The notes beneath the pieces are model-generated. The model was not told the origin of the DNA. It ran no database searches and saw nothing but the letters and a program-made list of their open reading frames with translations. DNA of 64,000 nucleotides, taken from IMG/VR virus record IMGVR_UViG_3300025861_000004; one strand, written 5' to 3'. This DNA comes from a virus (Duplodnaviria > Heunggongvirae > Uroviricota > Caudoviricetes). Shown here piece after piece: positions 55,654-56,382 of this stretch (within the stretch, counting starts at the first letter, position 1; every line of letters starts with the position of its first letter). The translations under genes were made by a program, and so were the position numbers.

Positions 55654-56046
55654 ATGGAACCCTGCGAGTACGCCCCCTACGCGAACACCTACGGAGCCTG
55701 TCGCGGGCCAGTGGCTCCGCGCGACGCGATCCACGTCCCCGACAAGCCTCCGGTCCCCTGCGCGCGCCTGTGCGAGAAGCACGCGGTGAACCTGCGCACG
55801 GGCTTCCACGGCGACCTTGACACGCGGGAGCTCCTCTGCGAGCGGCGTGGCCAGGGCGCGTGCCAGGGGCGCGTCGAGTACCGCGACGAGATCCAGACCG
55901 AGGAAGACTGCTTCCCCATCGCTCCGCTCTGCGACCGCCACTGGGGCGACAGGTCGACGAGTACGTGGAGAACTCAGCTCCTCCGGCCCGGATCGGGTAG
56001 ACTAGGCTTCATAACGACCCTTCGGGGGTGTACCGGTTTCGACTGA
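55654..56046 (+). CDS. Cys-rich hypothetical protein; the 3' end is uncertain
   Basis: The ORF tail has poor GC3 and runs through a motif copy (55973) into the tmRNA 5' end. The true stop is probably earlier. Confidence 0.3.
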   Translation: MEPCEYAPYANTYGACRGPVAPRDAIHVPDKPPVPCARLCEKHAVNLRTGFHGDLDTRELLCERRGQGACQGRVEYRDEIQTEEDCFPIAPLCDRHWGDRSTSTWRTQLLRPGSGRLGFITTLRGCTGFD

Positions 56047-56382
56047 GACGAGCAGTAGACGATCGCGTGCCGAGGGCCCTGCCCCCTCGTGAATCAAGCG
56101 GGAAAACCATAAACGCGAACGACAACAGCGTTCGCCTCGCCGCCTAGTAAGCGGGCAGAGGCTGTCCCTCCCAGGTAGGGTCCGTGACCGGGGAAGGGGC
56201 ATAAAAATAGCCGGGCTAGCGCCTGCCAGGGTCCATCGGGGCAGGGGGCGAAGCAAAGGTGGAATAGCCCGATGGGGAGCCCGCTGGTAGGCGCCTCGCA
56301 GGGTGAAACGACTGCCAGCTACGCACGTAGGGATCTCCGCGAGACGTTTCAGGATGCGAGTTCGACTCTCGCCACCTCCACC
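56022..56382 (+). ncRNA. ssrA: tmRNA (ssrA-like), tag peptide (A)NDNSVRLAA
   Basis: The 5' end GGGGGTGTACCGGTTTCGAC resembles the E. coli GGGGCUGAUUCUGGAUUCGAC. The tag reading frame is GCG AAC GAC AAC AGC GTT CGC CTC GCC GCC TAG TAA. The 3' end GCGAGTTCGACTCTCGCCACCTCCACC forms a T-arm plus an acceptor stem pairing with the 5' GGGGGUG, then ACC. Confidence 0.8.

Follow-up and report, generated by a model that had tools for sequence, protein, structure and literature searches.

The 64,000-nt stretch of DNA analysed here (the window, numbered from its first letter) carries a complete transfer-messenger RNA (tmRNA, ssrA-like) gene at 56024..56382 on the plus strand. Judging from the sequences of the window and its relatives, we consider it likely that this ssrA gene is functional and that its carrier is a very large extrachromosomal element of wastewater origin, most probably a huge phage. 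No structural element of a one-piece tmRNA is missing from the gene, and in related contigs it is kept in position, evolves more slowly than the DNA on either side and has its helices maintained by compensatory change. The central reading of this locus given in an earlier first-pass annotation, which had been made from the letters of the window alone, is supported by these results.

Structure and conservation of the tmRNA

A one-piece tmRNA with the tag ANDNSVRLAA followed by two stop codons was called by ARAGORN at 56024..56382 (+), and it was the single full-length copy in the window. The Rfam model RF00023 matched 56024..56383 from end to end (model positions 1-374) with 162.5 bits and an E-value of 2.8e-64, the gathering score of this family being 47 bits. 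The same search, run as a control on 15 bacterial loci, returned 142-212 bits for chromosomal tmRNAs, so the score obtained in the window is normal for a real tmRNA. The claim of a complete tmRNA was thus borne out by the very covariance-model and ARAGORN searches that the first-pass annotation had proposed as a check; the 5' end, which it had placed at 56022, proved to be 2 nt off, the mature end being 56024. A permuted two-piece tmRNA (RF01850 and relatives) was considered and ruled out, as the standard order of the molecule matches RF00023 throughout.

The elements that had been read by eye, namely the 5' end, the first pseudoknot (PK1) helix, the tag frame with its double stop, the T-arm, the acceptor and the discriminator, were all found to be present. 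The tmRNA begins with GGGGGUGUACCGGUUUCGAC, and its first segment (56024..56055, +) holds the 5' acceptor strand GGGGGUG with the G3 of a G3·U pair, the D-loop analogue and the start of helix P2. The 3' segment (56373..56382, +) consists of the acceptor strand CACCUCC (56373-56379), the discriminator A (56380) and two C residues. Both strands form the 7-bp acceptor stem, containing G3·U, of a tRNA-Ala-like domain, which also comprises the T-arm GCGAG-UUCGACU-CUCGC (56356..56372, +) with its GUUCGANUC-type loop. Both stems of PK1 (56071..56103, +) pair, as CGAGGG/CCCUCG and CCUGC/GCGGG, and the long helix P2 and the helices of PK2-PK4 were located by mapping the Rfam consensus onto the window sequence. 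The alanine resume codon GCG at 56115 is preceded by AUAAAC and opens the tag frame identified by ARAGORN, GCG AAC GAC AAC AGC GUU CGC CUC GCC GCC UAG UAA (56115..56150, +), whose stops are located in the loop of helix 5. The encoded 3' end reads A-CC-U, so that a full CCA is not encoded, the terminal A being absent.

Relatives of the locus were found using ORFan neighbour genes as anchors. The same tmRNA, 100% identical, is present on element contigs from two other samples, and a syntenic tmRNA was found in 12 of the 14 contigs retrieved with the open reading frame (ORF) upstream of the gene, the other two being short contigs that end before the site. Eight distinct alleles were obtained, which are 0.886-0.997 identical while the flanking DNA is 73-84% identical. 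In two relatives, L141 and L143, homology to the window is lost at 55801 and picks up again precisely at 55973, the base with which the promoter described below begins, which argues that promoter and RNA constitute one conserved module.

The alignment of the eight alleles was tested for covariation against the Rfam-derived structure supplemented with the second stem of PK1; it is limited to eight related sequences, of which a single one, that of the window, supplied the structure. Standard pairs were observed in 98.2% of cells, against 41-58% when the partners were slid, and both sides had changed in 5 pairs (13 cells), against 0-2 pairs (0-3 cells) in the slid controls. The observed covariation score was reached by none of 500 shuffles. 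In the T-arm, three of the five stem pairs change on both sides among alleles with 100% of cells paired (GCGAG/CTCGC, TGGGG/CCCCA, GAGAG/CTCTC, AGGGG/CCCCT and GAGGG/CCCTC), and compensatory changes outside the T-stem were found in P2 (pair 47/302) and in PK2 (pair 141/179). The stems of PK1 are kept in relatives via G-C/G-U changes. The first 32 nt (0/32 positions variable), the 3' acceptor strand, the discriminator and G3·U are invariant in all eight alleles, and 3 of the 36 positions of the tag ORF vary, accounting for a synonymous GAC/GAT change and an AGC/CAC codon that encodes Ser or His; both stops are kept.

Comparison with bacterial tmRNAs was carried out at several levels. The tag-coding pattern, which was confined to AGY codons for Ser, CGN for Arg and CTN for Leu, was found in none of 185,579 bacterial and archaeal species representatives (GTDB) and not once in IMG/VR, and blastn searches (word size 11) of the 50,697 deposited phage records of INPHARED returned no similar tmRNA. 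A broader pattern (the same type of 5' end and a tag starting with AN[D/E]) matched at least 120 loci from many phyla, and 111 tmRNAs were extracted, 109 of them bacterial and two being the element copies L001 and L002. Among the matches listed, the best of the 109 bacterial tmRNAs was 0.65 identical to that of the element in pairwise comparison and 0.59 identical on the shared columns of a joint alignment of 87 non-permuted bacterial tmRNAs and the eight element alleles (95 sequences). As yardsticks in this alignment, the median for bacterial pairs was 0.52, Stenotrophomonas versus Xanthomonas gave 0.82 and the median value for the best neighbour of a bacterial tmRNA was 0.84. Because the best sampled bacterial tmRNA is only 0.59 identical, capture of the gene does not appear to have been recent, and the comparison favours a long-resident gene of the lineage; a closer bacterial relative may exist outside this pattern-limited sample.

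Myxococcota (Sandaracinaceae, Nannocystales, Myxococcus and a deltaproteobacterial metagenome-assembled genome) account for 9 of the 11 top-ranked bacterial tmRNAs among the matches listed, and Thermoanaerobaculia share an exact 5' 20-mer with the tmRNA of the element. Both groups are weak leads to a possible host or donor, with no evidence of recent capture. The tag resembles those of Proteobacteria and Myxococcota rather than those of Actinobacteria. Rhodocyclaceae (Accumulibacter, Thauera and Azonexus) were rejected as donors, their tmRNAs being of the permuted beta type, and the insertion sequence (IS) transposase of the window, when used for host inference, gave only IS5-family matches of at most 30% identity.

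The promoter-like motif of the element

The 8-mer TCAGCTCC was counted 29 times as an exact match in the window, where 3.85 occurrences would be expected, and 24 of the copies are followed by an ATG whose A is at precisely offset 37 from their first T. The consensus of these 24 copies is TCAGCTCC(0-7)-gatcC-...-TCGAC(24-28)-...-CATG(36-39), or TCAGCTCC-N16-T(C/A)GAC-N7-CA when the variant found at the tmRNA is included. The two elements are separated by 16 nt, and a further 7 nt lead from the second one to offset 37. Relatives that share only ~70-77% DNA identity have retained the motif. The spacing of its elements and the fixed offset of the ATG suggest a sigma70-family-like promoter from which transcripts would start at the start codon, giving leaderless mRNAs. 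Copies of the form TCAGCTCC-N16-TCGAC-N8-ATG stand, for example, at 19513, 23531, 33003, 49493, 51888 and 61661, and the motif was also seen in contigs L003, L129 and L131. It often starts directly after the stop codon of the preceding gene, which results in constant intergenic gaps of ~37-42 nt.

The tmRNA is preceded by a copy that reads TCAGCTCC-N16-TAGACT-N6-CAT and leads into no ORF. Its -35-like element, TCAGCTCC at 55974..55981 (+), is an exact copy, and its -10-like element, TAGACT at 55998..56003 (+), is a one-base variant of TCGAC (offsets 24-28) following a 16-nt spacer; both are invariant 5' of all eight alleles. C-A is kept at offsets 36-37 of this copy, offsets 36-38 being CAT in the window and CGT in some alleles. 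Transcription is predicted to start at the A at offset 37 (56011), which would yield a 13-nt 5' leader (56011..56023, +), presumably removed by RNase P; the leader is 10 nt long in L141, L143 and L145. A motif copy upstream of the tmRNA had already been noticed in the first-pass annotation, and it is indeed there, although not at the spacing of about 36 nt then given: the 8-mer starts 50 nt and ends 42 nt before the 5' end of the tmRNA, and the equivalent of the start-codon A lies 13 nt upstream. Terminator-like matches at the locus were weak.

The elements of this promoter are invariant even though the 3' tail of the upstream ORF crosses them in all three codon phases across the relatives, so the constraint acts on a DNA signal and not on a protein. 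Given that the motif precedes a non-coding RNA gene and is invariant in three frames, it most likely acts on transcription rather than on translation. Most genes of the element would by extension be expressed as leaderless mRNAs.

The carrier element and rival readings of the tmRNA

Exact-protein look-ups placed the window sequence on metagenome contigs from at least five samples, two of which are US municipal wastewater (PMC7300365). A 278-kb JGI contig extends to the right from its start at about window position 37,000, a 331.5-kb ENA contig runs leftwards from a tandem array near 14.9 kb, and we infer a genome of at least ~330 kb, probably of more than 400 kb. The window has a G+C content of 61-72% (66% around the tmRNA locus) and short, densely packed genes. 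Across the 89 predicted proteins, matches at E <= 1e-5 were obtained to only 19 Pfam families, including PTH2, RNA ligase, RNase H, NUDIX, NAPRTase, HD domain, AlkB-like oxygenase, DnaJ and SPFH as well as GmrSD_N, DNA methylase, helix-turn-helix (HTH) regulators, IS transposase and M23. Several proteins had PHROG matches at E ~1e-50, jumbo-phage proteins among them. By tblastn, homologues of two window proteins were detected in 64 and 48 deposited records of phages, among which there are many jumbo phages of Proteobacteria (Klebsiella FBKp24-like phages, Xanthomonas XacN1, and Stenotrophomonas and Pseudomonas phages).

Several observations weigh against a functional tmRNA on a huge phage. Capsid, portal, terminase and tail genes were not found in the window or its flanks of ~24 kb (~88 kb in total), and a step beyond the window flank in search of capsid, terminase or smpB genes found only IS, RlaP and AAA genes; as ~88 kb contain no virion or packaging gene, we infer, rather than demonstrate, the viral nature of the element. 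No SmpB domain was detected among the 89 window proteins or in the flanks. The lineage was not found in INPHARED or IMG/VR by DNA, tag, motif or two-protein anchored scans. A generic sigma70 promoter scan returned nothing at the tmRNA locus, where the -10-like element departs from the sigma70 consensus. Within the RNA, the T-arm is the most variable part (10/20 positions), and the 3 nt after the discriminator vary among alleles (ACC-U, AC-U, A-AUA and A-AUU), none of which has a full CCA. Since these nucleotides differ among alleles, CCA would have to be added post-transcriptionally; enzymatic CCA addition occurs in many bacteria. Lastly, the tmRNA is accessory, since the relative L129, which is collinear with the window at ~77% nucleotide identity, has ~600 nt in place of a whole 13.5-kb block (44433..57896) that holds the tmRNA together with the RNA ligase, NUDIX/M23, GmrSD_N and HNH genes, and this makes the gene dispensable for the L129 lineage. 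The block with the tmRNA is present in L132 and L137.

The alternative that survives best is that the carrier is another very large extrachromosomal element, for instance a megaplasmid, in which the tmRNA would work in an identical manner but serve the maintenance of the element in its host and not infection. The missing virion and packaging genes and the failure to find the lineage in IMG/VR would suit such a carrier, as would a right flank encoding a major facilitator superfamily transporter and a PP2C phosphatase, the IS elements, and the translation-gene sets that some large putative plasmids carry in a similar form (Al-Shayeb et al., PMC7162821). Nevertheless, we regard this alternative as unlikely, as neither Rep, ParA/ParB and relaxase nor type IV secretion domains were found among the 89 window proteins, Rep, Par and conjugation genes were likewise not found in the flanks of ~24 kb, and for several proteins the best or the sole relatives are in jumbo phages. 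The one protein tested against plasmids had no homologue among 72,556 of them, and the 21-kb tmRNA region gave no plasmid match in PLSDB. Roughly three quarters of the window proteins have no Pfam match, the ~88 kb being made up mostly of ORFans, and the element possesses an HNH endonuclease and a NAPRTase and NUDIX pair, which are typical of large phages.

It seems very improbable that the tmRNA is a decoy soaking up host SmpB, alanyl-tRNA synthetase (AlaRS) or EF-Tu, or else a decaying passenger copy. Mycobacteriophage DS6A carries little more than the tRNA-like domain of a tmRNA, and such molecules inhibit tmRNA (PMC4131195), which would speak for a decoy, as would the location of the strictest invariance in the strands of the tRNA-like domain and the lack of an smpB gene nearby. 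However, the mRNA-like domain is also conserved, with its nearly invariant tag ORF and both stops, PK1-PK4 keep pairing, and the compensatory changes at 47/302 and 141/179 lie outside the tRNA-like domain in helices that a decoy would not need. A decaying copy, for its part, would not retain 89-99.7% identity next to flanks that have dropped to 73-84%. Finally, a host chromosomal ssrA, or an ssrA-derived attachment site at a prophage edge, was suggested by the many integrative elements that target the 3' end of ssrA and by the divergence among alleles of the sequence 3' of the tmRNA, but is effectively refuted by a full-length gene with the element's own invariant promoter in a syntenic, covarying family, by motif-bearing ORFan genes that flank it over no less than 75 kb on its left and 12 kb on its right, by the absence of an adjacent integrase or smpB (Pfam and PHROG scans of the window proteins), by the absence of the tag, in the codon families searched, from the species representatives, and by the 0.59-0.65 identity of the best bacterial tmRNA among the matches listed, all of which agrees with the first-pass annotation in making the gene element-borne.

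For a phage-borne tmRNA, we propose the following sequence of events, in which the processing, charging, delivery and tagging steps are taken from established tmRNA biology. During infection, an RNA polymerase holoenzyme containing a sigma factor of the element or of the host would read TCAGCTCC-N16-T(C/A)GAC and start at ~56011. Host RNase P would cut at 56024 and remove the 13-nt leader, and the 3' end would be finished by host nucleases and the CCA-adding enzyme. The tmRNA would be charged by host AlaRS via the invariant G3·U and, with EF-Tu and SmpB (the host's, unless encoded elsewhere in the genome), would enter ribosomes stalled on broken or stop-less mRNAs. Translation would resume at GCG 56115, add (A)ANDN(S/H)VRLAA and terminate at UAG UAA, upon which the ribosome would be released and the peptide marked via its C-terminal LAA for ClpXP-type proteolysis. 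The tag keeps the features that matter in E. coli for recognition by SspB and ClpX, an N-terminal AAND and a C-terminal LAA.

Other genes related to translation and RNA repair were identified in the element. An RNA ligase gene (Pfam domain PF09414) is located at 45255..45956 (-), a peptidyl-tRNA hydrolase PTH2 gene (PF01981, E 4.7e-26) at 21748..22146 (-) and a tRNA-Ile gene at 7896..7971 (-; ARAGORN; RF00005, 52.4 bits). The first-pass annotation had listed a tRNA, two PTH2 genes and a ligase-like gene; the tRNA, the RNA ligase and one PTH2 stand, whereas no second PTH2 gene or paralogue could be found among the window proteins. The tRNA-Ile, the only tRNA gene in the window and also present in L003 and L004, has the anticodon AAU, which is unusual in bacteria, as these normally use GAU. 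Contig L147 contains, ~16-19 kb left of the window start (its positions 16705-20274), a pair of neighbouring genes for RlaP-family nucleotidyltransferases (PF10127, phrog_388) and, after them, an AAA ATPase gene, and together with the RNA ligase of the window these point to a putative RNA-repair capacity.

The benefit of the tmRNA to the element is likely to be extra ribosome-rescue capacity while mRNAs and tRNAs are cut during infection, which is in line with its RNA ligase, RlaP, PTH2 and tRNA genes. These genes are scattered 10-50 kb from the tmRNA and not clustered with it, and owing to this dispersal a shared programme is put forward as a hypothesis and not as an operon. A bolder proposal, which we offer tentatively and consider rather doubtful, is that the tmRNA is one arm of a counter-defence kit, in which RNA ligase and RlaP would carry out repair, PTH2 would recycle dropped peptidyl-tRNA and the element would supply its own tRNA. 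If so, the host or competing elements would cleave tRNAs and mRNAs in order to stop infection, and the tmRNA, transcribed from a promoter that the host cannot shut off, would keep ribosomes available. Whether a relative has the 13.5-kb block would then be the outcome of an arms race against particular host defences, and the Ser/His tag variants and the fast-changing T-arm might have arisen by evasion of a host factor, or of the adjacent HNH endonuclease, directed against the RNA or the gene encoding it.

Known tmRNAs and the surroundings of the gene

Bacterial one-piece SsrA (RF00023) and the tmRNA of the element share a 10-codon tag running from AND to LAA, the alanine resume codon and the full architecture. 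The latter differs in being element-borne, in having the element's own promoter, in lacking an adjacent smpB, in being accessory among close relatives and in its tag, ANDN(S/H)VRLAA, which was not found in the 185,579 species representatives (codon families searched). Phage tmRNAs are rare but documented. Both tmRNA and SmpB have been reported in huge phages from metagenomes (Al-Shayeb et al. 2020, PMC7162821), and the present case has in common with those an ARAGORN-detected tmRNA, an uncultivated genome of more than 200 kb and other translation genes. Unlike in that survey, which lists occurrences, a conserved and covarying family with a lineage-specific promoter is described here, and no SmpB was seen in the available part of this genome. 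Full-length ssrA genes have also been found in eight mycobacteriophages (those of cluster C, such as Bxz1, Cali, Catera and Rizal, plus Wildcat) and in Bacillus phage G (Hudson et al. 2014, PMC4131195), large lytic phages characterised by their richness in translation genes; our tmRNA has no detectable nucleotide similarity to these (50,697 deposited phage records), and the host range of its carrier differs from theirs. With the tRNA-like-domain gene of DS6A (PMC4131195) and with phage attachment (attP) sites that stem from the 3' end of ssrA it shares only the presence of tmRNA-derived sequence in a phage genome, since here the RNA is present and conserved as a whole, its tag ORF and its four pseudoknots included, and no integrase lies close by.

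The tmRNA of the element is therefore a separate sequence family of an already known kind. What is added here is comparative evidence of constraint, a lineage-specific promoter, accessory status and the use of a non-coding gene to interpret the motif. PMC7162821 and PMC4131195 list occurrences of phage tmRNAs and report no experimental test of one, and a defined promoter together with natural tmRNA-plus and tmRNA-minus variants makes the question of what a phage gains from its own tmRNA more tractable. For annotation, the case is a reminder that a metagenomic contig cannot be taken for bacterial on the strength of a tmRNA.

Immediately downstream, 33 nt 3' of the tmRNA, starts a gene for an HNH-type endonuclease (56416..56961, +; phrog_3322, 1.2e-17, as well as phrog_1035 and phrog_3118), which has no motif copy of its own. 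It follows the tmRNA in the window, L137, L138 and L143 and is absent in L132, L140, L141 and L145. The gene adjoins the T-arm, the fastest-changing part of the tmRNA, and a link such as homing or co-conversion is possible, although it does not sort cleanly by allele. A spurious 229-aa ORF (56272-56961) was placed over the 3' part of the tmRNA by gene callers.

On the other side lies a Cys/His-rich ORF (55654..56046, +), whose 3' end overlaps the promoter and which was aligned with its homologues P0009-P0012. The window copy has a 1-nt indel relative to these homologues, as a result of which its frame crosses the promoter and extends over the first 23 nt of the tmRNA. By analogy with the smpB-ssrA arrangement of E. 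coli, this ORF was considered as a divergent SmpB but rejected, as the protein is Cys/His-rich and has no Pfam, PHROG or PDB similarity to SmpB; furthermore, its 3' part is not conserved in L141 and L143.

Further to the right, 57029-57448 and 57489-57848 (+) are tandem paralogous ORFan genes, the 3' ends of which, with the motif copies that follow them, share 70% identity along 132 nt; L132 has, instead of this pair, a 190-aa gene encoded on the opposite strand. To the left of the tmRNA, 54085-54522 (+) encodes a 145-aa protein annotated as a protease (phrog_11227) that is widespread in jumbo phages.

An extended form of the lineage motif was used as a probe and gave no match in IMG/VR and one in the metagenome collection, which was discarded as it lies on a contig of 72% G+C and bacterial appearance that has the motif nowhere but at its extreme end. 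The segment 36664-42929 has a lower G+C content and contains an IS5-family-like DDE transposase with a SWIM zinc finger (41144-42487, +) and HTH genes; it is absent from L129 and present in L128. A second, unrelated IS is located left of the window in L147 (10929-11813). The NAPRTase-like gene (28616-30025, +), which L129 also lacks, and a NUDIX and M23-peptidase fusion (46227-47249, -) could represent an NAD-salvage pair as in some large phages.

Two genes contain tandem repeats. A 651-aa SPFH/Band-7 protein (31043-32998, +) has six 33-nt (11-aa) repeats at 31949-32179. A 1102-aa protein (12590-15898, +), missed by the G+C-based gene filter, has an N-terminal SF2 helicase-like region with GAGKT and DESH motifs, as read by eye, followed by seven in-frame 70-aa repeats (14450-15860; 210-nt period, 94% identical), the differences between which are concentrated at one di-residue site (DK, AI, DN, DD or DG). 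Its gene has a lower G+C content (0.55) and a purine-rich strand, and the assemblies of other samples break inside the array.

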